A stretch of 64,000 nt of DNA from a virus (IMGVR_UViG_3300013288_000004:127360-191359); one strand, 5' to 3'; positions 3,426 through 61,793 are shown, counted from the stretch's first letter. Numbers and translations are program-made. Notes: generated by a model not told the origin, from the sequence alone.

Positions 3426-3881
3426 TTATTGCTTTTCATTCAGATTGTCCTCAAGTTCTTTAATGCGTTTGCGAAGCTCGCCGTTAATGACACTCATATT
3501 CTTTATATTATCACGTTCAAAATCGACAGTTCGCAATGCTTTCTTTAAATTTACATTATTGAAATCACAGGCGTCAGCAATGTTTGAATCGCGATTGTCC
3601 CATTCTATAAATAATTCACGCTTTTTGAGCCTTCTAGCCGCAAGAGCATCCTCACTAATCTGCCACTTTCTTGCTACAAAGTCAATAGCTGCAAGTACAT
3701 CACCCATCTCTTCAGTCATTCTGGTTATCATGGAACCTTTACCATCCGGGTGATCATCACTATCATAATATGCGATTTTCTTTGCGCATATCTGAACTAG
3801 TTCACCGCATTCTTCCATCAATTTTGTTAAACCATTTGCAGACATCATAAAGCCAATATTCCTGTATAATTTGGAGCCCAC
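3426..3881 (-). CDS. MazG-like nucleotide pyrophosphohydrolase
   Basis: 151 aa; LMEECGELVQ ... EEMGDVLAAIDF blocks typical of the MazG/NTP-PPase all-alpha family. Confidence 0.5.
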   Translation of the reverse strand: MGSKLYRNIGFMMSANGLTKLMEECGELVQICAKKIAYYDSDDHPDGKGSMITRMTEEMGDVLAAIDFVARKWQISEDALAARRLKKRELFIEWDNRDSNIADACDFNNVNLKKALRTVDFERDNIKNMSVINGELRKRIKELEDNLNEKQ

Positions 3882-3946
3882 TACGGGACTTGAACCCGCG
3901 CTCGCCGCTATACGCTATCGCTGCTCTTTCTCTGAGCTAAATGGGC
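3872..3946 (-). tRNA. tRNA-like sequence, possible pseudo-tRNA
   Basis: Reverse complement GCCCATT-TA-GCTC-AGAGAAA-GAGC...GCGGG-TTCAAGT-CCCGT-AGTGGGC-T-CCA has good acceptor, D- and T-arms plus CCA. Anticodon region (contains CGCTATACGCTATCG direct repeat) has no canonical stem. Same family as 1599-1670. Confidence 0.35.
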
Positions 3947-3962
3947 TTAATTCTTTTTCATA

Positions 3963-4034
3963 CACCCTGTGACGGTATCGAACCGTCCTCTTCCAGATCA
4001 ATATAGATATTCTAGCCGCTATTACTAACAGGGT
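3963..4034 (-). tRNA. tRNA-like sequence (acceptor ACCCTGT/ACAGGGT, perfect T-arm GACGG-TTCGATA-CCGTC; D and anticodon arms non-canonical)
   Basis: Folded by eye on the minus strand; no CCA; low confidence. Confidence 0.3.
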
Positions 4035-4054
4035 GTACTATTACATATAAGTAA

Positions 4055-4195
4055 AACATATGCAGGTTGACATTGTGATAACGAACCCGGTCCATTCCTT
4101 AGTTCTCGATAGTTTGAGAGTTTCGAACCTCTCTGTCTAATCTCAGCCGGGTAGTATTCAACCGCCTTTAATGACACCGTTTCCGGTTACATATG
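4055..4195 (-). repeat. structured repeat element, copy 2
   Basis: Paralog of 1793-1933; hairpin GAGAG-GTTCGAAA-CTCTC here versus CAGA-GTTCGAAA-TCTG in copy 1 (covariation). Confidence 0.4.
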
Positions 4196-4600
4196 TTATT
4201 CTTGTTTCTCATTTGATGGCTCTATAGTATCTGGTAGCAGAGTCCTTGTCAACTGTTTGAGCAATTCTTCTCTGTCTAGTATAATTACATTATCACCTTC
4301 AACTGTCGCCCCACTATTGGAAGGATATGGAAAAATGTAATCTTCTTGTAACGATAGCGGATTGTAATAACCGTCTTGGTTATCAAGCTCTAGATCGTGG
4401 ATATCCTTCATCGCGAAATCCCTCTCTTCATTTTTATCAACGTCTAGAGCGTTTAAAAGAAATTGTGGCTCTTTGTGATATTCCGTTGATCCAAACCATA
4501 TGCAAATTGGGCGAATAGTTCTTACTGAACGTTCGCCCTTATAGTTTGTGTAATCAATCTTGAAATTGCAGTTATATGTCAAGTTTGCTATGTTATACAT
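4196..4600 (-). CDS. hypothetical protein
   Basis: 134-aa ORF. Confidence 0.45.
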   Translation of the reverse strand: MYNIANLTYNCNFKIDYTNYKGERSVRTIRPICIWFGSTEYHKEPQFLLNALDVDKNEERDFAMKDIHDLELDNQDGYYNPLSLQEDYIFPYPSNSGATVEGDNVIILDREELLKQLTRTLLPDTIEPSNEKQE

Positions 4601-4925
4601 TAAATAATGGCCCTCTAAATAATTTTACTAAATCTGCCATAAGTTCCTTATCAATTTCATCACATATCTCTTTAGCGCATTTCTTAACGAGAAGTCTTTC
4701 GATAATATGGGGATTTCTATTCCACCGCTTATATGATGACTGCCAAGGCTGAATAATATTATGATTTCTTTTACTCTTTGGTAGGATTCTATTGGTATTC
4801 AATCTACGCTTCGAAGTTTTCTCCCAAGATATATCTAAATCAAAATTGGCATCAAGCTTATAGCTCGGACCTCCCCTATTAACTCCATCCAATATAATAA
4901 ATGGCCCATTGACTGTATAATTCAT
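4593..4925 (-). CDS. hypothetical protein, paralog of 3075-3389
   Basis: Shared IIQPWQS.Y.R..R motif block. Confidence 0.45.
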   Translation of the reverse strand: MNYTVNGPFIILDGVNRGGPSYKLDANFDLDISWEKTSKRRLNTNRILPKSKRNHNIIQPWQSSYKRWNRNPHIIERLLVKKCAKEICDEIDKELMADLVKLFRGPLFNV

Positions 4926-5131
4926 TTCTTAAATCTCTCTTTCGTCTGTTTACGAAGCTCTTTAATCAGATGTTTTAAGACGGCTTCAGTCGCATATTTA
5001 TCAACAATTACTTTAGCATCATCGGCTATCTCTTGTTTTAACTGTTTAACCATCATTCGTAATGCCCGACTATGATATTGCCTAACAGGCTTTTCATATT
5101 CTATTGTCCACTCGCCTTCTAGCTTACGCAT
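4922..5131 (-). CDS. hypothetical protein
   Basis: 69-aa ORF, start overlaps upstream stop (ATGA). Confidence 0.4.
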   Translation of the reverse strand: MRKLEGEWTIEYEKPVRQYHSRALRMMVKQLKQEIADDAKVIVDKYATEAVLKHLIKELRKQTKERFKK

Positions 5132-5596
5132 TCACTTACCCCATACTATATTTTTGATGATTCTATCAATGATCCTTTCCCACAATGATTTCTTTTTACG
5201 AATGTTTATGGTTTCACCATATTCTGGCTTAGGTTCTGGCTTGACTATTTCTTTCTGTTTCTTTTTAGGAGGATCAGCATCTTTCTTTAATTGTGGTTCT
5301 GGCCATTGTTTCTTCTGTTCTTCGGATACATAATCATATGTAACTTCACCTGTAGATTCATTTATCAACCTATTAGGTGGGAACCGAAGAAATGCTTTAC
5401 TATTTTCGATATTACCTTCTATCTGAACCAATCCATTAGACGACTTATGTTGTGTTGCCACTTTTTTCGTTTGTATATTGTCTATCTTTATCTTTGCAAA
5501 CATTTGATCATCGGAAAATGATGGACTTACATACGATGAGTAAAATAATTTTAATTCTATTGGATCAGAATCTAACAGTTCTTTATTTAATTTCAT
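5132..5596 (-). CDS. hypothetical lysine-rich protein
   Basis: 154-aa ORF; KKDADPPKKKQKEIVKPEPKPE low-complexity segment. Confidence 0.45.
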   Translation of the reverse strand: MKLNKELLDSDPIELKLFYSSYVSPSFSDDQMFAKIKIDNIQTKKVATQHKSSNGLVQIEGNIENSKAFLRFPPNRLINESTGEVTYDYVSEEQKKQWPEPQLKKDADPPKKKQKEIVKPEPKPEYGETINIRKKKSLWERIIDRIIKNIVWGK

Positions 5597-5709
5597 ATAA
5601 GAATGACTACCATCACCATTATCTGCTTCCTAAAACATGTACATAATGTACATCATTCCAGTTCCTAATTCAACCATCCAACTTTCACACGATTTTCTGT
5701 GCAAATTGG

Positions 5710-6948
5710 TCAGATGTCCAAAGGCGTAACTTCGGGACAAGCCATCCCTAGTTGTCTCATTCCTGAGACATAAATATTTTTGGCAGCATTCCAATCTCTG
5801 TCCATTTTATGACCACAATCCGTACAGCAGAAGATTCGATCACTCAATTTCAAGTCTGATTTATAGCTACCACAACTAGAACATGATTTGGAAGTCGGTG
5901 CCCATTTATCTATTACAACTAAATTGTTGTTATAAATCAATGACTTGTATTTGAGTTGGCGTCGGGCTTCGCCCACGCCACCATCAATTCCTGACTTCCC
6001 AAACATTTTGCTCCAGCTTTTCAAATTCAAATCTTCTATAATTATCGTTTGGTTTTCGCGACAGATTTGAGTTGTAAATTTGTGTGTGAAATCGTGACGT
6101 AAGTCACTGATTTCTTTATGTATTTTTGCTACTTTACATCTTTGTTTCTTTTTGTTTTGACTTCCATCTTTTCTCTTTGAACAAATTCTCTGATACCTTT
6201 TCAGCTTTTGAAGCTTGTTTTTCAATGGTTTTGGTGCATCGAAAGATGCGCCATTTTGATCAACCGCGAAAGTTTTGATGCCAAAATCAATTGCTATGGT
6301 GTTATCTGATGTTCTAGCTTTACCATAATCATTCATCTCTACCGCAATTGATATAAACCATTTATCAGCTTTTCGACTGACCACAGCAGACATGATCTTA
6401 CCTTCAAATCTCAATGTCTCTTCCAATTTAATTTTTCCAATTAGTGGAAGTTTAATCATATTATCAGTTATGTGAAATTGATCGTTTGAGACATAAAATG
6501 AATCGCGTTTGTACTTTTTCTTAAACTGCGGATACGCGGTTCGTTTGTCGAAGAAACCTTTGAAAGCACTTTGTAAATTTGTAAATGGTTGTTGATTTGC
6601 ATCTTTTGGTGAATCGTATATCCATGGAAATTCCTGCTTTTTAATGGAATTGAATTGCTTTTTCAATTTTAATGCTGACGGTTTCTCGCCTGCCATATAT
6701 TGCTTATTCCATTCGGCCAAAGCCCAATTGTAAGTGAATCTGGCGCAGCCTGCGGCTCGCGCCAGCATCTGCTTCTGTTCTTTGTTGGGTTTTAACTGAA
6801 TTTTGTGGGCAAGATTCACGGCGATTTTATTCGCTTTTTCTCTTAACTTTGGCGTCTTTCGGCACCAATATAGTGCGTGATGCCGTTTGGTATGCACCTT
6901 CGATGTAGCCAAGGTGGAACCAATTGTAAGCTGTTCTGTAACATACAC
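5710..6948 (-). CDS. tnpB: IS607/IS605-family TnpB (OrfB) RNA-guided endonuclease
   Basis: 412 aa; N-terminal LKPNKEQKQMLARAAGCARFTYNWAL; RuvC-I IAIDFGIKTFA, RuvC-II IIIEDLNLKSW, zinc finger CSSCGS...CCTDCGH, RuvC-III DRDWNAAKNI. All catalytic blocks intact. Confidence 0.85.
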   Translation of the reverse strand: MYVTEQLTIGSTLATSKVHTKRHHALYWCRKTPKLREKANKIAVNLAHKIQLKPNKEQKQMLARAAGCARFTYNWALAEWNKQYMAGEKPSALKLKKQFNSIKKQEFPWIYDSPKDANQQPFTNLQSAFKGFFDKRTAYPQFKKKYKRDSFYVSNDQFHITDNMIKLPLIGKIKLEETLRFEGKIMSAVVSRKADKWFISIAVEMNDYGKARTSDNTIAIDFGIKTFAVDQNGASFDAPKPLKNKLQKLKRYQRICSKRKDGSQNKKKQRCKVAKIHKEISDLRHDFTHKFTTQICRENQTIIIEDLNLKSWSKMFGKSGIDGGVGEARRQLKYKSLIYNNNLVVIDKWAPTSKSCSSCGSYKSDLKLSDRIFCCTDCGHKMDRDWNAAKNIYVSGMRQLGMACPEVTPLDI

Positions 6949-6985
6949 CTTGCGTCTTTGCGAAATCTACTAATTTTATCATCAT
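6828..6985 (-). pseudogene. remnant of IS607 TnpA serine recombinase (MerR-like HTH N-terminus only, about 52 codons)
   Basis: Minus-strand ORF MMIKLVDFAKTQGVCYRTAYNWFHLGYIEGAYQTASRTILV... matches the HTH N-terminus of IS607 TnpA (compare the intact TnpA at 20845-21411). No resolvase catalytic domain follows; the TnpB ORF begins overlapping it in another frame. Confidence 0.45.
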
Positions 6986-7030
6986 TTTTCAATCCTTTAC
7001 ATCTATTTATACGGATTTTAAAAATACGCG

Positions 7031-7288
7031 CTAACAATTTTTGATTTCTTGTTCCTTTAATCGTTTAATTTCTCTACGCATTAAGTTGTCATAATTGTTC
7101 ATTGCAACACCAATATTACCACCACTTTCGGCGTGTTGCAATATCAACTCTTCTTTGATTTTTTCTAAAGGTGAAAATGGGTATGAGGTTAGATTCCATA
7201 AAATTGTATCACATTCCTCATAGGTTAAATCTTGTGACCAATACTTGCGAACAAAATCTACAAAAGTGCCTTCAGTTATTTCTTCCAT
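7031..7288 (-). CDS. hypothetical protein
   Basis: 85-aa ORF. Confidence 0.45.
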   Translation of the reverse strand: MEEITEGTFVDFVRKYWSQDLTYEECDTILWNLTSYPFSPLEKIKEELILQHAESGGNIGVAMNNYDNLMRREIKRLKEQEIKNC

Positions 7289-7575
7289 TATTCATTCTCA
7301 ATTACAGTTCTTCTGTTCCAACGGTCAATAGCTTCTTGTTCACTATCACCACTTATTTCTGCGCCACATCCTCCAGCATTTTCGGTACAATTCATAGTCC
7401 AGCACATACCGTCACCTTCCTTAGCTCTATCTCTTCCATGATAAGACCGCATAGTCCCTTCATTTGGAAGTACATTATCTCTCCAGTATGTCCCAGATGG
7501 ATATAGCGTATCAATTAAATCTTCTTCTGGTTCCATACCACAGAACGGGCATGGTAGTAATTTTACGTTGCTCAT
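7288..7575 (-). CDS. lar: Lar-family restriction alleviation protein (zinc ribbon)
   Basis: 95 aa; LPCPFCG...C..C...EAIDRWNRR matches the Lar family signature (PCPFCG zinc ribbon, C-terminal EAIxxWNRR). Confidence 0.6.
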   Translation of the reverse strand: MSNVKLLPCPFCGMEPEEDLIDTLYPSGTYWRDNVLPNEGTMRSYHGRDRAKEGDGMCWTMNCTENAGGCGAEISGDSEQEAIDRWNRRTVIENE

Positions 7576-7580
7576 AATGA

Positions 7581-7967
7581 TTAATCCATTTCAATAATTT
7601 TAATATCTCTACCCAAATAACCAGAAGTATTAACAGGTGTGCATGGTGGTCGCCATTTATTTTCCAATGCTGTTTTAATCCAATCAGGTGTTAACAATTT
7701 TAATTGTTCATTACCAATCTTTTCAGCTTTTTTACATGCTTCTACTGCTGTTTTAGCCTTTCCAATATATCTAGTATGTTTATAATTCCAATCAGTAATT
7801 TCTACTGACCATCGATACATTCCATCGATCAAATCAACTTCCAAATCTATATTAGCTGGAGAATTGTAGTATAATGATTTTCTCCAAGGACTATAATTTA
7901 ATGATTTGGAACCCCAACCAGTACCGTTGAATGGTTTTGGCGGAAAATAATCTAATTCATAGCTCAT
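7581..7967 (-). CDS. hypothetical protein
   Basis: 128-aa ORF. Confidence 0.45.
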   Translation of the reverse strand: MSYELDYFPPKPFNGTGWGSKSLNYSPWRKSLYYNSPANIDLEVDLIDGMYRWSVEITDWNYKHTRYIGKAKTAVEACKKAEKIGNEQLKLLTPDWIKTALENKWRPPCTPVNTSGYLGRDIKIIEMD

Positions 7968-8176
7968 ACTATCCTCACATCAAAGTCATGTACGTACCCT
8001 TTTACCAGAACATCGCCTGTAATGCAAGTCAATGCTAGATGATCACCATGGTGAATATGATCTACTTTGAATTTATGTCCTTTATATTCTTCATAATAAG
8101 GATAGAATGGTGGCTCATAAACTTTGTCCACAAACTCTACAATCATGCCGAGCTTAATCTGAGTCATACTCATCAT
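7964..8176 (-). CDS. hypothetical protein
   Basis: 70-aa ORF, overlapping start/stop with neighbour. Confidence 0.4.
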   Translation of the reverse strand: MMSMTQIKLGMIVEFVDKVYEPPFYPYYEEYKGHKFKVDHIHHGDHLALTCITGDVLVKGYVHDFDVRIV

Positions 8177-8181
8177 ATCCT

Positions 8182-8490
8182 TTAGGTGATATAGGTAACA
8201 TTTTTATTACGGTTGAGGTTCGTGACCTCGAAATAAATAATACAACCATACTGACTATACTCACCAGCACAAACCTTTATTTTACAATCTACGCCGTATT
8301 GTAGTCGAATAGTCGTAATGAATGCTGCGAAATGTGATGGCTCACTTGCGGCGACATCAAGTGAATCAACTAAACAATCATATTCATTAAGTTTGGCAGC
8401 AATCTTACCATCACACTCAATTAATCGATATCTGTCAGTTTCAATATCCTGCACAATGAACACAAGCTCTGAATTAGGTGGTGCGTACAT
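8182..8490 (-). CDS. hypothetical protein
   Basis: 102-aa ORF. Confidence 0.4.
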   Translation of the reverse strand: MYAPPNSELVFIVQDIETDRYRLIECDGKIAAKLNEYDCLVDSLDVAASEPSHFAAFITTIRLQYGVDCKIKVCAGEYSQYGCIIYFEVTNLNRNKNVTYIT

Positions 8491-8712
8491 ATCTTATAGC
8501 CTATCCGAGATATTCACGATTTTGTAAAAATCGTAATACTTATTTTGTTGAGAGATATATTCTTGCGCATCAGCTTCATTATCGAATGAGGCTAAAAAAT
8601 TGTCAATATTTGGATAATATTGATCCCACCCCAACACCCAAAATAATTTCATGTCCTTCATCCCCTATGTTTAAGCTATCATAAGGGAATTGAGGTTAGA
8701 TGTCAATGATGA

Positions 8713-19618: not shown

Positions 19619-20848
19619 TCAATGCCAATAATGACATAACTTAGGTTTTGTGTCAAGTGAAATTTTCACTGACAAGGGCCAACTACATGCCTCTATCGGA
19701 TCAATTTTTACATCTCCGACTGCTTTTCTCATAATATTATATGCGCCATTGACATCTGCATTTATTTCTAAATCAAGACATTTGTCTTTATAAATTCCTC
19801 TGGTTTTTCTATATCCAGAAAATTTCATGTCATCCGTCTTCTCTCCATATGTCGGAATCATATCATTACTCAAACATGATGCCTTTGATGTATAGCTCTC
19901 TTCCTGACAAATGACATTAATTCCTCTTGATTCGGCTTTATATGTCAACATTTGTTTCAATTTATTGAATGGCACTGACACAAAATTTTGATTATTTTTC
20001 TTTCCGATGTTTATCTCTTGTTTCCAACCTTTATTTTCACCGATTATTAAGGTGTTTATTTGGTTGAAATCTAATTGATTAATAAGCCACGTACTTGCTT
20101 TATGTAAATAATCACGAATTTTGTCATTTCTTTTTCTAGAAATGGCGTTGATTCTATTACTTGTCTTTCTTTTGTCTCCTAATTTTGATTGTAGTTCTGC
20201 TTTTCTTTTATTATAATATTGGTTTATAGCTTTCAATGGTTTTCCATTTATTAAAAATGGTTTCATGACATTTGACGCTGTTGCTACTAAATTACTTAAA
20301 CCGATATCAACGGACAAATAACGACTATTGTCACTTCTTTTGTCTTCTATATCTGTCAAATATATCACTTCTATATCAAAATGATTGCTTCTCGGAACAA
20401 CTCTAACCTGTTGTATATCTGTTTTTTCTGTCTTTATAAAGATGTCATAACCAGATAATTTTACATATCCAGGTTTAACGAAAGATAATGCCTGATTAGT
20501 GAAAATTGTCACATATTTACCTGATTTGTCTAGGTAATTTGGTATACGTACCTTGTCATTTTTCTTTGCTTTCAACAAAGCAAAGAATGATCTAAAATTT
20601 TGATCAACCAATTTTAAGGTCTGTTGTGACACTTTTCTAGGTAATTGCTGGTAATCTATATTAGTTTTTGCGAAATCACCAGCTAATTTTGAATAGCCGA
20701 TGTATGTTTTTGTGGAGAAAAAATGCTGACGAATGGCATACAAAGATGCATTATACAAGTTTTTGGACTTGTGAGTCAGATCACACAAGTCACTAAAATA
20801 ATGACTTGTGCGACATATGGCATGCTTTTCTACACGTCTAGCTTTCAT
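19619..20848 (-). CDS. tnpB: IS607-family TnpB (OrfB) RNA-guided endonuclease
   Basis: 409 aa; RuvC-I LSVDIGLSNL, RuvC-II LIIGENKGW, RuvC-III INADVNGAYNI; zinc-finger cysteines reduced (only 2 Cys); 4-nt overlap with tnpA. Confidence 0.85.
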   Translation of the reverse strand: MKARRVEKHAICRTSHYFSDLCDLTHKSKNLYNASLYAIRQHFFSTKTYIGYSKLAGDFAKTNIDYQQLPRKVSQQTLKLVDQNFRSFFALLKAKKNDKVRIPNYLDKSGKYVTIFTNQALSFVKPGYVKLSGYDIFIKTEKTDIQQVRVVPRSNHFDIEVIYLTDIEDKRSDNSRYLSVDIGLSNLVATASNVMKPFLINGKPLKAINQYYNKRKAELQSKLGDKRKTSNRINAISRKRNDKIRDYLHKASTWLINQLDFNQINTLIIGENKGWKQEINIGKKNNQNFVSVPFNKLKQMLTYKAESRGINVICQEESYTSKASCLSNDMIPTYGEKTDDMKFSGYRKTRGIYKDKCLDLEINADVNGAYNIMRKAVGDVKIDPIEACSWPLSVKISLDTKPKLCHYWH

Positions 20849-21411
20849 GCAGCTTCCAAGGATTGGATCAGCTTTTCGGTCTGTCGCTTGGACCTACGCA
20901 ATCCATACAACCGGGCTGTAAAAGATGTGACAAGTGACACGAAATCTTGCATTAAATCTTCTTTTTCGTCCTGAACCGGATTGATGACCTCAATCTTTCT
21001 GTCAGAAACAGCCAGCAATTTCTCGATGTAATTGGTGCCGAAACGGGCTAATCGATCTTTGTGTTCCACAACAATCAAGTCAATGTCTTTATCTATTAAA
21101 AGCGACTCAAGTTTTGGTCTGTTGTCATTTAAACCAGAACCAATTTCTGTGACAATCTTCTCTATTTTGTATCCTTTGGCATTGCAATAAGACACAACTC
21201 GATCTTTTTGTCTATCAAGATTATCTTTGTTTTCTGTACTCGAAACTCGGGCATAAACAGCGACTTTTGTCTCTTTATTGACATCAAGTAAGATGCGAAC
21301 CCTGCCAGTTTGTGTATGTTCTATTTGTAGTTCGTTATTTTTGATCCAGCGCCATACTGTGCGCTGGCTCACACCTTTCATTTTTGCATATTCAGATATT
21401 TTTATTCTCAT
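20845..21411 (-). CDS. tnpA: IS607-family TnpA serine recombinase (MerR-like HTH + resolvase catalytic domain)
   Basis: 188 aa; N-terminal IKISEYAKMKGVSQRTVWRWIKNN HTH; catalytic YARVSS...DRQ...VVEHKDRLAR serine recombinase blocks. Confidence 0.85.
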   Translation of the reverse strand: MRIKISEYAKMKGVSQRTVWRWIKNNELQIEHTQTGRVRILLDVNKETKVAVYARVSSTENKDNLDRQKDRVVSYCNAKGYKIEKIVTEIGSGLNDNRPKLESLLIDKDIDLIVVEHKDRLARFGTNYIEKLLAVSDRKIEVINPVQDEKEDLMQDFVSLVTSFTARLYGLRRSKRQTEKLIQSLEAA

Positions 21412-21488
21412 TTGTTTTTCTCTTCTACAAATCTATTTATAGTAAACGCAGACAAGTGTACCAAAAATATCCTGTTATGTCTTCTAAT

Positions 21489-21794
21489 TCAATAAAGATT
21501 CATAATACCAGCAGATTTCAGCAAGTCAACGCCTTCTTTTTCTGATAGTGGCGGCAACCCACCAATAGACTCAAATTCGGAATTATCATTTTTAATCGCT
21601 TGAATTTGTTTACGAATATATCTCATAAACAATATAGCTTTATCTTCATCCAAGAAAGTCCCGTCACCAGTATCACTAATAGGCACTGGAAACATGAAGC
21701 CACATTCAGTTTTATAAAACAATTCACCATGCTTATAGTAACAAAACTTCACTCTCTTATTATCTTTAACTATGTCTTTAATATTGTAATTCAT
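21489..21794 (-). CDS. hypothetical protein
   Basis: 101-aa ORF. Confidence 0.45.
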   Translation of the reverse strand: MNYNIKDIVKDNKRVKFCYYKHGELFYKTECGFMFPVPISDTGDGTFLDEDKAILFMRYIRKQIQAIKNDNSEFESIGGLPPLSEKEGVDLLKSAGIMNLY

Positions 21795-22423
21795 GAATCT
21801 ATCCCTCTGGTTATTTCTAATCCACTATTTTCTAGTAGTCTTTTTGCTCTACCATAATTGTCACCCTTTGGTGACATGTTTAAATTTAACAAACCATGGC
21901 GTATACTGCCAGCGTTTACTATGCTATTAATAAGTTCGTTATCACTTATTTTCGCCTTTCTTGTGTTTCTTCCTCGCCATGTCGGAGTTAATGAATGACA
22001 ATTAGGACATAATCCCTCTAGATTATCTCTAGAATTATTCTTATTATTTCCGTCAATATGGTCAATCTCTAATGAGATTGGAGATCCCATCCACTCAAAA
22101 ATACCACAAGAATTACATTTATTTTCTTGTTCTTTTATGACCCTAACCCGCTTTACATCAAAACATACAGAGTCAAATGGTTTTTCATTAATTTTCTTTT
22201 CGAGAGTTTCTTTTATTTTCTTAATTCTAGTTGGTGTATGTATTTTTGATATTCTCTCTACCCTTTCCAAATCTGATAAATTTCTCCAAAATATCTTGTT
22301 CTGGTCTGCTTTTTTAATTTTGGCTTCATCAGTAAAGACCCTAGTATTTCTACATGCTAGAGAACAATAATTTATTAACCCCTTGGATGGTATAAAATCT
22401 ACTTCACATTTTTTACATTTCAT
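21791..22423 (-). CDS. HNH homing endonuclease
   Basis: 210 aa; N-terminal CKKCEVDF...CSLACRN zinc ribbon; HNH core LEIDHIDGNNKNNSRDNLEGLCPNCHSLT. Confidence 0.8.
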   Translation of the reverse strand: MKCKKCEVDFIPSKGLINYCSLACRNTRVFTDEAKIKKADQNKIFWRNLSDLERVERISKIHTPTRIKKIKETLEKKINEKPFDSVCFDVKRVRVIKEQENKCNSCGIFEWMGSPISLEIDHIDGNNKNNSRDNLEGLCPNCHSLTPTWRGRNTRKAKISDNELINSIVNAGSIRHGLLNLNMSPKGDNYGRAKRLLENSGLEITRGIDS

Positions 22424-44342: not shown

Positions 44343-44368
44343 AAAAGGGCCAATTTGGCCCTTTTTCT
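44343..44368. terminator. bidirectional rho-independent terminator
   Basis: AAAAAGGGCCAA-TT-TGGCCCTTTTT between convergent genes. Confidence 0.6.
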
Positions 44369-45611
44369 ATTCATAATTTCTAAGTAGAAACTTGTTGCAT
44401 GTTTTTGGAAAACAAGTATCATTATCCTCTGTTAAGAACCAAAACCATTTTTCTGGAATCTTTGGGGTAACTGTTGTTCCCAAACCATCAGTAATAATAA
44501 AAACACCTTCTGGATAAGAATCAAAATCTTTCAGAACTGATTCTTCAATAATTCTAAAACAAGTACCACCTCCCATTGGCAACCTATTTTTATTCAAATC
44601 TATTTCGTGCACATAAGTTGAAAAACAAAAAAACCTAACATCAAATTTATCCAGCGGGACACTTTTTGCGGCATCGTAGAAACGTTGGGCGTAACTATGG
44701 CAAGACCCGGAAGTATCTAGATAAAATGCTATACTAATTCTTTCTTTCTTCTTTTTATCCATATCCGCTATTGTTGGTAAAAAGAAATTACTATCCAATG
44801 TTACAAATCTTCTATTCTTTCTAGCCCACTGATAGTATTCATTTTCCGTAACCTTTAATTTAGATTTCACCCATTTATGTATAACAGTTTCCCACTTCTT
44901 CTTTTTAACTACTTTCTTATTTTCTAACTCCTTTACAACAAATACATAAGCAGACCCTGCTTGTTTTTTGTTAGAATTGTTTACGGAATCTAAAGCCTCT
45001 TTTAGTTGCTCTAATTCTGATTCATCCATCCCGTCGATCATTTCTTGAATTACTTTATCTGATACAATAAACCAGTCGGAATGATCGTCAAGCATATTAC
45101 CGCCAGAACGTCCTTGCGGTCCATTCCCTTGTTCATCTGTTTCAGCATCTTTTACTAACAAATTATAATAATATTCCATAGTCATTCCATATGGTACATT
45201 TTTGTCAGGAAAAGCATTATCAAGCCACCAACCTCCGATATCCAATTCTTCCTTGATAAATTTATAAAATCTAACAAGAGTTTCGTTCACACATATATCA
45301 GCAGCTATATTCATCAATTCTTTGTTGAATTCTGGTAAACTTAGCATTCCATATAATCTTGGTAGATGCGAGAGCATCACATGCATACATTCATGGCTAA
45401 TCAAGAATAATTTTTGCAATTTATTCATCTGACTCCAAAAAGTTGGATTAATTGTCAATAAAATGTGTTCCCGAGATTCATCCGTTGCAGACACTCCAAG
45501 TGTTGGTACACTATCACTAAATTGTACGTAGCTCATGTTAAGGAATGTATAGTACATATTCCCATATGGTTGTAGACCGCGTAATAATTCTAATTTCTCT
45601 TCCAATTCCAT
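44367..45611 (-). CDS. VWA-domain protein with N-terminal HExxH metallopeptidase-like motif (CobT-like / DUF2201-like partner of the AAA ATPase)
   Basis: 414 aa; HECMHVMLSH zincin-like motif; C-terminal AFYLDTSGSC (VWA MIDAS DxSxS) ... ITDGLGT. Confidence 0.65.
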   Translation of the reverse strand: MELEEKLELLRGLQPYGNMYYTFLNMSYVQFSDSVPTLGVSATDESREHILLTINPTFWSQMNKLQKLFLISHECMHVMLSHLPRLYGMLSLPEFNKELMNIAADICVNETLVRFYKFIKEELDIGGWWLDNAFPDKNVPYGMTMEYYYNLLVKDAETDEQGNGPQGRSGGNMLDDHSDWFIVSDKVIQEMIDGMDESELEQLKEALDSVNNSNKKQAGSAYVFVVKELENKKVVKKKKWETVIHKWVKSKLKVTENEYYQWARKNRRFVTLDSNFFLPTIADMDKKKKERISIAFYLDTSGSCHSYAQRFYDAAKSVPLDKFDVRFFCFSTYVHEIDLNKNRLPMGGGTCFRIIEESVLKDFDSYPEGVFIITDGLGTTVTPKIPEKWFWFLTEDNDTCFPKTCNKFLLRNYE

Positions 45612-45672: not shown

Positions 45673-48303
45673 ATGGCTACAATAGAAGATAAATTAAAAT
45701 TTGCTGCGAAGAATGAACTAAATGTCATGCTGATCGGGCATGCTGGAGTTGGAAAAACTTCAATAGTTAAAAACATATTCGAAGAACTTGGATTAAAGTA
45801 TCTGTACTACTCAGCTTCTACCATGGACCCATGGGTAGATTTTGTTGGAGTCCCGCACGAAGTAACTGGAGAAGACGGTGTAAAATATCTCGACCTAGTT
45901 CGTCCTAAAGCATTCGCATATGATGATGTTGAAGCTATCTTTTTGGATGAATATAATAGATGCATCAGTGGTGATACCAAAATTCTGTTAGCCGATGGTA
46001 CATCAGAAGCTGTTAAGGATTTAGTCGGTAGAGAACATTTTTATGTGTATTCTTTTGACACCAAAAACAAAAGTATAGAAATTGCAAAAGCACATTCTGC
46101 TAGAATTACCGTCAGAAACGAAAACTTACTAAAAATAACATTAGATAATGGCGCATCATTCAAATGTACAAAAGATCACCCTATATTAAGAATAACTGGA
46201 GAATTTGACTTAGCTGAGAATTTTTCAGTCAACGATTCTCTAATGCCGTGCTATCGTTTCTGGAAACAAACCGGATATGAATATATAATGCAACCACAAG
46301 GAAAGAAATGGGAATTAACGTATCTTTTGGCTGATTTATACAACTTAAGAAATAATATTTATAAAATTGATGATGGTGAGCATCGTCATCATGTAGATTT
46401 TGACAAACATAATAATTCACCAGAAAATATATTGAGATTAACAGAATCTGCGCACATGTCTCTCCATGCCAATCATGATGAGAAATCTATTATGGGTGGT
46501 AGAATGGCGCATAAAATTCACCCGGACTTGTATGCAAGGACAATAGGCACCGAGGAAAGTAGGAAAAAAATGAAAGAACGGTCGGCATTGGTAAGAAAAA
46601 CTTGTCCAAAATATAAAGCGAAGCGCTCTATCGCAAGCAAAAAAATGTATACTCAAGAGATGAGGGATTATCGTGCGGAAGTAACCAAAAAACAATGGCA
46701 AACTGAACAATTTAAGAATATAGACAGAAAGGCTTCCTTAGAAAGAAATCATCTATCTAGAGTATTAAACTTTCTCACGGATAATAATATAAACATCGGC
46801 GAATTGACCGAAGAAAACTATAAAAATGCTTACTTGGAAAGAAGTAGAAATAAAAGACGACTGCCAATGAAACATTCTACCATAATAACAAAATTTTCAG
46901 ATTTTGAAAATTTCAAAAAAATACTATTGGAATTTCAATCAGCTAAAAAAAATGGTAATCATAAAATAATAAAAATCGAAGAAGTTGATGCTGAAGATAC
47001 TTACGATATTACGGTTGATGAATTTGAGAATTTTGCCCTAGAGTGTGGAATTTTTGTTCATAATTCACCAATCAAGGTAAGGAACGCTGTTATGGAATTG
47101 ATACAATTCAAATCCATCAATGGTAAAAAATTCAATAATCTAAAACTGGTTTGGGCCGCAATAAATCCTAGTGATGAGGATGATACAGGAAAAACATATG
47201 ATGTTGAAGCTCTTGACCCGGCACAATTAGATCGTTTCCATTTTCACATTGAAATGCCTTATGCTTTAAATAAAAAATATTTCAAATCAAAATACCCAGA
47301 GTATGTAGATGCTGTTCTTGAATGGTGGAATGCTCTACCAAAACCACAAAAGAATTTAGTATCTCCTAGACGTGTTGACATGGCTTTAAGCGTTCTCAGA
47401 AATGGCGGTGATCTAAATTGGATATTACCAAATAATGTAAACTGTAAAGAATTGGTAGACATTCTAGATAATGGAACATTTTCCGCTAGAGTGGGCAATT
47501 GTTTTGAAGAAAAGAATGAAGAAAAAACTAAGAATTTATTGACTGACAATGACAAAACTCTTAGCAAATACATGAAGTGTATATTCCAAAAGAATGAATA
47601 TATTGAATATTTCATGCCATTCATCACTGATGAACAAATGATGAGCATGATAACCAACAACAATAAACCCGTCATAGATTATGTGTCACGAGCAGATATT
47701 GCCGTAACTCGTGAAAAATTGTTAAGTAGCATAGTAAAAGCTAAATCAGTGAAAAAGGATTTGTTGGACAAATTCAACAATGTATTAAAAGTCATTAGAC
47801 AATCAAAACAAAAAATAGATGTTACGTCTAATGTTGCGCATTTACCCTCCGAATCTTTGTGTATAGGTAAAAATGAAAATAGTCATATTGATTTAGAATC
47901 AAATCGTGACTGGCTAGATTTTTATCATAGGATTACATCAACTAGATATGTTCCAAATACATACGACAGGAAAAAAGTCTTTTTGGCGCTTACTGATATG
48001 GGTGGTGCTATCTATGATTATAAAATGCCAGAAAAAACAGAATTAATCGGTAATATATTTGATTGTGCTGTTTCTATAATAAAAAGTACTTATAATATTG
48101 TGCATGGCAAAGAAAACTTAATATATTTAATTAAAATTATGAATTCGTGTGATGTAATTTTATCAGAACACAATATAGATATATTCGCCTTAATGAAAAA
48201 GAAAACAGATAGAATAGACAAAGCGTTAAAAGTAATAGAACAAGAACAATCGTGCTATGATATGTTAAATTCAAAATTCAAGGACTATCATGATAATTTA
48301 TAA
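45673..48303 (+). CDS. MoxR/CobS-like AAA+ ATPase (AAA_5) interrupted by an HNH-containing intein
   Basis: 876 aa; Walker A LIGHAGVGKTS, Walker B IFLDEYNR immediately followed by Cys (intein start CISGDTKILLADG); extein resumes ...VHN|SPIKVRNA; sensor region AQLDRF. Confidence 0.8.
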   Translation: MATIEDKLKFAAKNELNVMLIGHAGVGKTSIVKNIFEELGLKYLYYSASTMDPWVDFVGVPHEVTGEDGVKYLDLVRPKAFAYDDVEAIFLDEYNRCISGDTKILLADGTSEAVKDLVGREHFYVYSFDTKNKSIEIAKAHSARITVRNENLLKITLDNGASFKCTKDHPILRITGEFDLAENFSVNDSLMPCYRFWKQTGYEYIMQPQGKKWELTYLLADLYNLRNNIYKIDDGEHRHHVDFDKHNNSPENILRLTESAHMSLHANHDEKSIMGGRMAHKIHPDLYARTIGTEESRKKMKERSALVRKTCPKYKAKRSIASKKMYTQEMRDYRAEVTKKQWQTEQFKNIDRKASLERNHLSRVLNFLTDNNINIGELTEENYKNAYLERSRNKRRLPMKHSTIITKFSDFENFKKILLEFQSAKKNGNHKIIKIEEVDAEDTYDITVDEFENFALECGIFVHNSPIKVRNAVMELIQFKSINGKKFNNLKLVWAAINPSDEDDTGKTYDVEALDPAQLDRFHFHIEMPYALNKKYFKSKYPEYVDAVLEWWNALPKPQKNLVSPRRVDMALSVLRNGGDLNWILPNNVNCKELVDILDNGTFSARVGNCFEEKNEEKTKNLLTDNDKTLSKYMKCIFQKNEYIEYFMPFITDEQMMSMITNNNKPVIDYVSRADIAVTREKLLSSIVKAKSVKKDLLDKFNNVLKVIRQSKQKIDVTSNVAHLPSESLCIGKNENSHIDLESNRDWLDFYHRITSTRYVPNTYDRKKVFLALTDMGGAIYDYKMPEKTELIGNIFDCAVSIIKSTYNIVHGKENLIYLIKIMNSCDVILSEHNIDIFALMKKKTDRIDKALKVIEQEQSCYDMLNSKFKDYHDNL
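45961..47064 (+). other. intein (368 aa) with HNH homing-endonuclease domain
   Basis: N-terminal Cys + block A ISGDTKILLADG; internal HRHHVDFDKHNNSPENILRLTESAHMSLH (HNH); C-terminal block G FVHN followed by Ser. Confidence 0.75.
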
Positions 48304-61337: not shown

Positions 61338-61418
61338 GTAGTTTTTAATTCCATATTAGCAAACGTATTTATCTTAGTGTTTTTATTTGTAAACCTAAAA
61401 ACCGGTGGGCATAAACAA

Positions 61419-61446
61419 AAACACCAGCGAAAGCTGGTGTTTTGTA
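61419..61446. terminator. rho-independent terminator hairpin
   Basis: AACACCAGC-GAAA-GCTGGTGTTTTG. Confidence 0.55.
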
Positions 61447-61647
61447 ATCTTATTTGGTAACAAGGTAGATTAGACCCCGTGATAGTTCATGCCGCTTGCG
61501 CGTACTCGACATCAAAAAATTCATCGTTAGATGCATTTATAGTTTCATGCTGATTAGGTCAGTCATCTATCCGGTTGCCACATACACACTCCACTATGAG
61601 TCGAAGCCAATTATACCCCCGTCAAAAGATTACAGACCATAATCTTT

Positions 61648-61720
61648 TGGTGGAGGTAAGCGGAGTCGAACCGCTGTGTTCATAACTTTGTTGTAATGGG
61701 ATTACAACCATTTATTCTTC
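61648..61720 (-). tRNA. tRNA-like 3' portion (T-arm AGCGG-TTCGACT-CCGCT, acceptor strand TACCTCC, encoded ACCA); 5' half not identifiable
   Basis: Direct inspection; adjacent 7-bp hairpin TTGTAAT-CCC-ATTACAA. Confidence 0.3.
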
Positions 61721-61793
61721 TTTCGAAGAATTTTTAAAAATACCTTTCATAATTCTACCAATCAAATAACCTTCCGCTATATATTTATCTAAA

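Follow-up and report, generated by a model that had tools for sequence, protein, structure and literature searches.

A recombinase-free TnpB cassette, probably of IS607 lineage, with a conserved helix-turn-helix microprotein in large phages

Transposase-free TnpB elements are abundant, and their persistence and movement are unsettled. In the established mechanism, TnpB acts with an omegaRNA whose guide is read from the DNA flanking the right end of the element. IS200/IS605 elements have subterminal hairpins at both ends that are recognised by the Y1 HUH transposase, and TldR-type domesticated TnpB proteins combine an inactivated RuvC site with a conserved guide against a host promoter. For most IS607 TnpBs the reported target-adjacent motifs (TAMs) are AGGAG or GAGGG, and the idea that OMEGA elements (the name abbreviates obligate mobile element-guided activity) home by cutting and then copying is already in the literature (PMC13565253). 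Arc and CvkR are described as small repressors of TnpB and Cas12k elements (bioRxiv 10.64898/2026.09.24.754181). Here we analyse a cassette in a 64,000-nucleotide stretch of viral DNA (IMGVR_UViG_3300013288_000004:127360-191359, hereafter the window), in which, to judge from its sequence, a transposase has been cut down to its DNA-binding domain, and this stub, which is under strong selection, travels with an active-looking TnpB–omegaRNA pair. We read it, with a probability of roughly 0.55, as a 1.41-kb OMEGA cassette of IS607 lineage that lacks a recombinase and behaves as a selfish RNA-guided homing-type element in large lytic-type phages.

The cassette shares several traits with IS607-family elements such as IS607 of Helicobacter pylori. 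Its helix-turn-helix (HTH) protein comes from the TnpA N-terminal family, the order of HTH gene, tnpB and 3' RNA is the same, the omegaRNA core is homologous (IS607 of KHP30T), a terminal hairpin segment lies between this core and the end, and terminal inverted repeats, which we sought in the cassette, gave nothing convincing, as in IS607. Unlike these elements, it has no recombinase catalytic domain of any kind. It ends in AG and has T/A-rich left flanks, whereas IS607 ends in GG and inserts at or after GG (PMC13565253); its 5' flank is rich in T, not in G, and is unlike the AGGAG/GAGGG TAMs (PMC13565253). It was seen once per genome segment examined, in phages.

As a TnpB–omegaRNA unit without its own transposase, the cassette also resembles solo-tnpB elements (IS1341-type, IS200/IS605), and the best score of its TnpB is to the IS200/IS605 TnpB model; in phages, the outgroups L087 and L090 carry tnpB as a genuinely solo gene. 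It differs from them in adding a conserved HTH gene and a promoter motif inside the left end. In contrast to IS200/IS605 elements, it has a right-end hairpin but no conserved left-end hairpin, and no Y1 tnpA was found. With phage homing endonuclease genes of the Seg/Mob type it shares its single copy, its intergenic position at a mosaic boundary, a candidate promoter motif of late type and a setting in an accessory region that has tRNAs and is rich in nuclease genes, and its HTH module partners a classical homing endonuclease in another phage (L003). Unlike theirs, its target recognition would be RNA-guided, and whereas homing endonuclease islands have fuzzy boundaries, the cassette ends are discrete and identical between loci.

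A further parallel is with Arc, a ribbon-helix-helix protein of IS605, and CvkR, a MerR-type winged-HTH protein of CRISPR-associated transposons of type V-K: the cassette, too, has within it a gene for a DNA-binding protein, here of about 50 amino acids, immediately ahead of that for the nuclease, and this microprotein has a predicted MerR-type fold like that of CvkR (bioRxiv 10.64898/2026.09.24.754181). It is a transposase DNA-binding domain and not an Arc fold, and a repressive role here would be by analogy. Were the microprotein to regulate or assist the nuclease, it would be a second kind of accessory factor for OMEGA elements beside Arc, and would link RNA-guided nucleases to phage homing.

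A unit carried at different sites in related phages

When the window was compared with four other loci (L001, L006, L007 and L093), homology began at 7034–7023 and ended at 5622–5619, and the flanks were otherwise unrelated. The left end, about 19 nt upstream of the conserved motif TATAAATAG, is common to all copies, and the right end is ...GCAG, a terminus present in 7/7 copies in end alignments. Between these borders every gene and feature lies on the minus strand, in the order TATAAATAG motif, 52-amino-acid winged-helix protein, TnpB, omegaRNA (four-helix core and terminal hairpin) and GCAG (Table 1).

The cassette was found in seven loci from six other phage contexts, with 80–83% nucleotide identity where measured. 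Six copies are full (the window, L006, L007, L091, L092 and L093; 1,392–1,410 bp). One is internally deleted (L001 5951–6443, equivalent to L002 and L075): it lacks the counterpart of window 6622–5698, and what is left is the HTH gene (92% identity), 65 codons from tnpB and 78 nt at the right end. L001, L006 and L091 have their left flank in common and differ in their right flanks; the remaining copies are independent. L093 is syntenic with window 3450–7141, and its cassette (L093 2238–3643) is inverted and lies 1.7 kb from the window's site, adjoining the homologue of the tRNA at window 3875–3946, where window 3849–3874 is unoccupied. Conversely, the L093 interval bounded by the homologues of window 5385 and 7045 holds no cassette, and the window phage and L093 show presence/absence polymorphism at two sites.

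We read the cassette, which related phages carry at other positions, as a unit that works and not as something dead or domesticated. The original prediction, a solo TnpB behind a decapitated TnpA, had expected the locus to be immobile; a 1.39–1.41-kb unit with the same ends in different flanks, including the inverted copy of L093, speaks against this.

A megablast search with window 4500–8500 found no match among INPHARED phages, tblastn with the 52-amino-acid open reading frame (ORF) found none in phages, and a consensus HTH sequence recovered only 5 records. Exact 17-mer scans of viral and metagenome collections gave mostly chance matches, and the real ones were loci already known. Contigs of the window phage reach 306 kb.

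Table 1 Features of the cassette and its right flank, in window coordinates
Feature	Position	Strand	Remarks
Whole cassette	5623..7030	-	Left end ~7030, uncertain by ~5 nt; right end 5623, terminating in ...GGAAGCAG; from homology borders with other copies
TATAAATAG motif	7003..7011	-	Candidate promoter of phage late type; the HTH ATG follows 19 nt downstream
52-codon HTH gene	6827..6985	-	Predicted MerR/Xis-like winged-helix microprotein; corresponds to the IS607 TnpA N-terminal DNA-binding domain without the recombinase domain
tnpB	5710..6819	-	369 codons from GTG 6819; catalytic triad and zinc finger intact
RuvC D/E/D codons	6288-6286, 6036-6034, 5796-5794	-	From the alignment with ISDra2 TnpB
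OmegaRNA core scaffold, four helices	5662..5777	-	116 nt; overlaps the last 68 nt of tnpB and 48 nt beyond its stop
Hairpin GTCTCAGGAATGAGAC (omegaRNA helix 1)	5769..5754	-	RNAalifold, covariation
Right-end terminal segment	5623..5661	-	Hairpin 5661..5630 and GAAGCAG tail 5629..5623
Predicted guide (ATAATGGTGATGGTAGTCAT)	5603..5622	-	Flanking phage DNA just upstream of a 154-amino-acid gene

The HTH microprotein and TnpB

Searched as a single sequence, the 52-codon ORF matched no family significantly (none in Pfam; NF033518, E = 0.063; phrog_6620, E = 0.015), and single-sequence Pfam and PDB searches were uninformative. A three-sequence HTH profile matched 444 proteins at E ≤ 1e-3. Among 106 scanned sequences (the window ORF and the 105 top profile matches), 57 match the NCBIfam IS607 transposase model (NF033518) and 15 have a Resolvase domain, and the HTH nearly always stands at residue 1. 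Because the profile matches hit IS607 and Resolvase proteins, we identify the ORF as the N-terminal HTH of IS607 TnpA, as originally proposed. No Resolvase domain was matched in the ORF by Pfam or NCBIfam, and none is present in any copy. A hidden catalytic domain is ruled out because only 7 nt separate the HTH stop (TAA, 6829–6827) from the tnpB start (GTG 6819), and a full-length tnpA disguised by a frameshift, the first weakness foreseen for the prediction, was looked for and not found.

The AlphaFold2 model of the protein (predicted local distance difference test score 91) has a beta-alpha-alpha-beta topology with a winged helix. Foldseek matched it to MerR DNA-binding domains, BldC, lambda Xis (template modelling score 0.80 over 52 residues) and Pukovnik Xis, with probabilities of 0.97–1.00 and E-values of only 0.1–0.5, because the protein is 52 residues long. 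On this model, the 52-amino-acid protein has a MerR/Xis-like winged-helix DNA-binding fold, and by analogy with known small partners of nuclease genes it is probably a DNA-binding accessory factor or regulator.

The HTH ORF is followed by tnpB in an identical architecture across independent assemblies, and is 51–52 codons long in every copy. Among close copies, the ratio of nonsynonymous to synonymous substitution rates (dN/dS) is 0.01–0.08 where dS (about 0.8–2.4) could be estimated, several pairs being too saturated for an estimate; between two HTH subtypes it is 0.15–0.24. Given this constant length and the low dN/dS, the ORF is a maintained gene under strong purifying selection and not debris, and the word 'remnant' does not fit it. 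A fusion of HTH and TnpB through frameshifting or readthrough is unlikely because the frame relation varies between copies: L001, L007 and L093 have both ORFs in one frame with a stop, and in L006 and the window the frame is shifted.

The long tnpB ORF spans 5710..6948, and the conserved N-terminus (VNLAHKIQLKPNKEQ) begins at GTG 6819; the upstream extension to GTG 6948 is not conserved in other copies. The overlap of tnpB with the 52-codon ORF that had been reported exists only for this extension and disappears when the gene is read from GTG 6819, 7 nt beyond the HTH stop. Pfam assigned OrfB_IS605 (2e-25), Cas12f1-like_TNB (2e-18) and HTH_OrfB_IS605 (3.5e-17) to the ORF, and the NCBIfam models guided_TnpB (255 bits, cut-off 100), IS200_TnpB (304 bits) and IS607_TnpB (206 bits) all matched. 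In an alignment with ISDra2 TnpB (8EXA/8BF8, E = 6e-47), the RuvC D/E/D residues are retained at AIDFGIK, IIIEDLN and MDRDWNAAKNI, as are both CxxC pairs of the zinc finger; the nuclease is intact, as the original reading had it, and its catalytic residues are not mutated. Relatives with 75–86% identity occur in phage contigs, and a pattern-based scan of 185,579 prokaryotic species genomes found no close relative (best 33% identity).

Two further observations concern tnpB itself. A block of low synonymous change at window ~5900–6150 (minus strand, codons ~225–305) has an identical-codon fraction of 0.70–0.93, compared with ~0.5–0.6 elsewhere. It is separate from the block at the omegaRNA described below, and could stem from recent gene conversion or from an RNA or promoter element inside the gene. 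In L092 and L093, the tnpB stop codon is lost and the ORF continues through the right end (380 and 400 amino acids, respectively).

OmegaRNA core, terminal hairpin and predicted guide

In the closest copies the final ~160 nt are nearly invariant, whereas upstream codons vary at wobble positions. Across seven tnpB genes, the identical-codon fraction is 0.90–0.95 in the last 40 codons versus 0.46–0.65 over most of the gene. RNAalifold placed four helices with 37 pairs in this region, and the hairpin that had been noticed in the tnpB 3' end, where an omegaRNA would be encoded, is helix 1 of this covarying core.

A covariance model of the core (R1) matches the tnpB 3' ends of Helicobacter phage IS607 (48.9 bits, KHP30T), of the 61% relative L089/L090 (41.6 bits) and of a Waddliaceae metagenome-assembled genome (38.8 bits); the tnpB genes matched by R1 have 33–61% identity. 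In an alignment of ten sequences, 94% of the cells are paired and 24 of the 37 pairs change on both sides. None of 500 shuffles reached the observed pairing and slid controls gave 32–45%, with the reservation that the alignment was fitted to the model, which somewhat favours the structure. TnpB is compact (369 amino acids), and with a defined scaffold of 155 nt and with natural guides it lends itself to direct testing.

Rfam gave no match in the omegaRNA region at the gathering threshold. Below it, the Helicobacter small RNA HPnc0580 matched over its full model length on the omegaRNA core (window 5642–5764, minus strand; 17.2 bits versus a gathering score of 37). The literature consulted gave no link between this family and an insertion sequence, and the IS607 locus of the Helicobacter phage does not contain it; it may be an unrecognised omegaRNA.

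The terminal hairpin keeps its structure across copies while its sequence differs. Its folding energy is -11.1 in the window (z = -3.6), and in L093 an unrelated sequence forms a perfect stem of 13 bp (-19.5, z = -5.7). In Helicobacter IS607, whose core likewise ends in ...AGGAA, an analogous segment with an inverted repeat follows. A fixed guide within the terminal hairpin was considered and rejected: no target for it exists in the window, and covariation shows the hairpin to be kept as a structure.

The assignment of the 20 nt beyond the right end as the guide follows from the established TnpB/omegaRNA mechanism. These 20 nt are different in all seven copies, which fits a flank-derived guide and is the opposite of a domesticated, fixed one; within the window, the predicted guide has no second match.

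This variability bears on an improbable alternative, close to the original prediction, in which an immobile, decapitated IS607 has had its TnpB retained or domesticated for a phage function, be it RNA-guided targeting of hosts or competitors or transcriptional control. In its favour, every one of the 19–20 contigs of the window phage has the cassette, fixed and with 100% identity, something maintains TnpB, since it is intact, and a nuclease that cuts cassette-free relatives could aid phage competition (a concept set out in PMC13565253). A domesticated TnpB, however, would be expected to have either a guide that is fixed or a nuclease that is dead, and the cassette shows neither. Like TldR it is a TnpB without a transposase; unlike TldR-type repressors, its active site is not inactivated, its predicted guide varies with the flank and it has no link to a conserved host gene. 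Different sites are moreover occupied in related phages, neither candidate guide has a second target in the window, and the internally deleted copy (L001/L002) looks like the ordinary decay of a selfish element.

The L093 cassette abuts the 3' end of a tRNA gene whose encoded CCA is replaced, and the predicted L093 guide is antisense to the acceptor and T arm of the tRNA. At the corresponding unoccupied site of the window, the 5' neighbour of the L093 guide sequence is TTTGGAG, which resembles IS607-type TAMs. In L091, the right end directly precedes what appears to be the 3' two-thirds of a tRNA (3707–3760; CAT anticodon loop, T arm, ACCA), although ARAGORN calls no tRNA in this interval.

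Promoter, movement, origin and neighbouring features

The TATAAATAG motif is invariant in 7 copies, and a near-identical gATAAATAG occurs in the HTH module of L003. We take it as a candidate promoter, presumably of the kind described by the T4 late promoter consensus; a scan for sigma-70 promoters was not above background. Leaving out the cassette's own site, 9 of 15 TATAAATA sites in the window lie 10–26 nt upstream of the start of an ORF of at least 45 codons, and the ORFs so preceded include the IS607 tnpA and an HNH gene.

A homing cycle would run as follows. TnpB with its omegaRNA would cut those alleles of co-infecting relatives that lack the element, where a TAM adjoins the flank matched by the guide, and the cassette would then be copied in by recombination, a 'non-restorative homing' like that of free-standing phage homing endonuclease genes. 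The microprotein would bind cassette DNA, at the promoter or the ends, and so, in the role of autoregulator or architectural factor, hold expression of the nuclease at a tolerable level. Arrival at new sites might depend on a full-length IS607 TnpA that is only distantly related and acts in trans, or on break-induced or illegitimate recombination.

Several observations weigh against this account. Sharp, identical ends at different loci look more like the work of a recombinase than of homing. The window phage is always occupied, with 100% identity, in its 19–20 contigs from several metagenomes, and an exact empty site, in which the TAM adjoins the target, was not recovered: a search via identical flanking proteins returned only occupied, 100% identical contigs, one via relatives of the 154-amino-acid gene in IMG/VR returned none, and the L093 interval corresponding to window 5385–7045 is mosaic rather than a clean empty site. 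A T-rich motif with TTA lies 5' of the left end in 7/7 copies (flanks GTTAG, TTTAG, TGTAG, ATTAT, TTTAT, TTTAA and GTTAT), in genomes that are AT-rich and with three copies sharing their flank; as a candidate TAM it is only a guess. No conserved motif shared by the ends, or operator for the HTH protein, was found in the cassette. Finally, TATAAATA is not enriched overall in the window (15 found versus 12.7 expected), which counts against the promoter assignment.

The same sharp, identical ends at unrelated sites, together with the opposite orientation in the syntenic relative, are what would be expected of a non-autonomous IS607 derivative mobilised in trans by a full-length IS607-type serine transposase of phage or host, which we regard as the strongest competing explanation, though a distinctly less probable one. 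One candidate donor would be the intact element at 19619–21411, TnpB would have only its usual role in retention, and the HTH-only protein, as a truncated transposase, would bind the ends and thereby inhibit or modulate transposition in the manner of Tn5 Inh or IS911 OrfA. It agrees with this that the right-end hairpin is placed like the inverted TnpA-site segment of Helicobacter IS607, and that the complete tnpA–tnpB pair in the window has the same upstream motif, TATAAATAGAT. However, no full-length TnpA with an HTH more than ~50% identical was found in collections of 5.8 billion or 1.8 billion proteins, and the closest (~50%) partners a TnpB of another clade. The window's own IS607-type TnpA matches the HTH ORF over 22 residues only, with 45% identity. 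The right end is AG and not the GG typical of IS607 (PMC13565253), the sequence of the terminal hairpin differs between copies with nearly identical HTH proteins, and a single copy is seen per genome segment examined.

Related HTH genes also stand beside other nuclease genes. In L003 (877–2713, also L004 and L005), a promoter–HTH module with 75% amino-acid identity precedes a homing endonuclease instead of tnpB, and overlaps by 32 nt the start of this gene (at least 559 amino acids; phrog_3339, DUF7487). In a different lineage (L021), a 57-amino-acid HTH-only ORF overlaps the start of an IS607-type tnpB. The nearest outgroup TnpBs in phages, L087 (75% identity) and L090 (61%), have no HTH ORF, and L087 also lacks the terminal hairpin.

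These arrangements could point to an HTH gene that was independently a phage or homing-module gene, beside which a solo IS605/IS1341-like TnpB–omegaRNA landed, the pair having since travelled together by recombination. The lack of an HTH ORF in the outgroups, the module with a different nuclease gene in L003–L005 and the pairing of the closest full-length TnpAs with another TnpB clade would suit such a history. We nonetheless consider it doubtful at best: canonical Helicobacter IS607, an element with TnpA and this type of TnpB, has a homologous omegaRNA core, the combination of an HTH-only gene and tnpB recurs in another lineage, and the left end upstream of the HTH promoter is common to all seven copies. 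The cassette could have arisen through loss of the catalytic domain in situ or through addition of the HTH module to a solo TnpB; the homology of the omegaRNA to Helicobacter IS607 favours an IS607 origin.

A more speculative extension, to which we give little weight, is that the microprotein is a portable, dedicated partner of selfish phage nucleases, both TnpB and homing endonucleases, which tames their expression or binds the ends for recombinase-free insertion, the unit being self-sufficient. If true, HTH, TnpB and omegaRNA would be mobile without a transposase, which bears on how solo-tnpB elements spread.

Elsewhere in the window, a complete IS607-type element lies at 19619–21441 (minus strand), with a tnpA of 188 amino acids at 21411..20845 (NF033518, 183 bits) and a tnpB of 409 amino acids from a different TnpB clade; the TATAAATAGAT motif stands 22 nt upstream of its tnpA ATG. 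Dispersed repeats of ~165 nt (85% identity) occur at 1783–1946 and 4044–4207, and, from a comparison of 1603–1673 with 3875–3955, there is a second tRNA-like copy resembling the tRNA at 3875–3946. The window has eight dispersed tRNAs (3875, 13800, 15125, 22488, 24441, 24533, 25442 and 33597) and a transfer-messenger RNA (61417–61752, minus strand). HNH or homing-endonuclease-like genes are abundant (21791–22423, 44367–45611, 45673–48303, and from 23727 and 24713). The HNH-rich region includes an 876-amino-acid ATPase with an HNH insert, and several of its genes have TATAAATA 10–26 nt upstream of their start.

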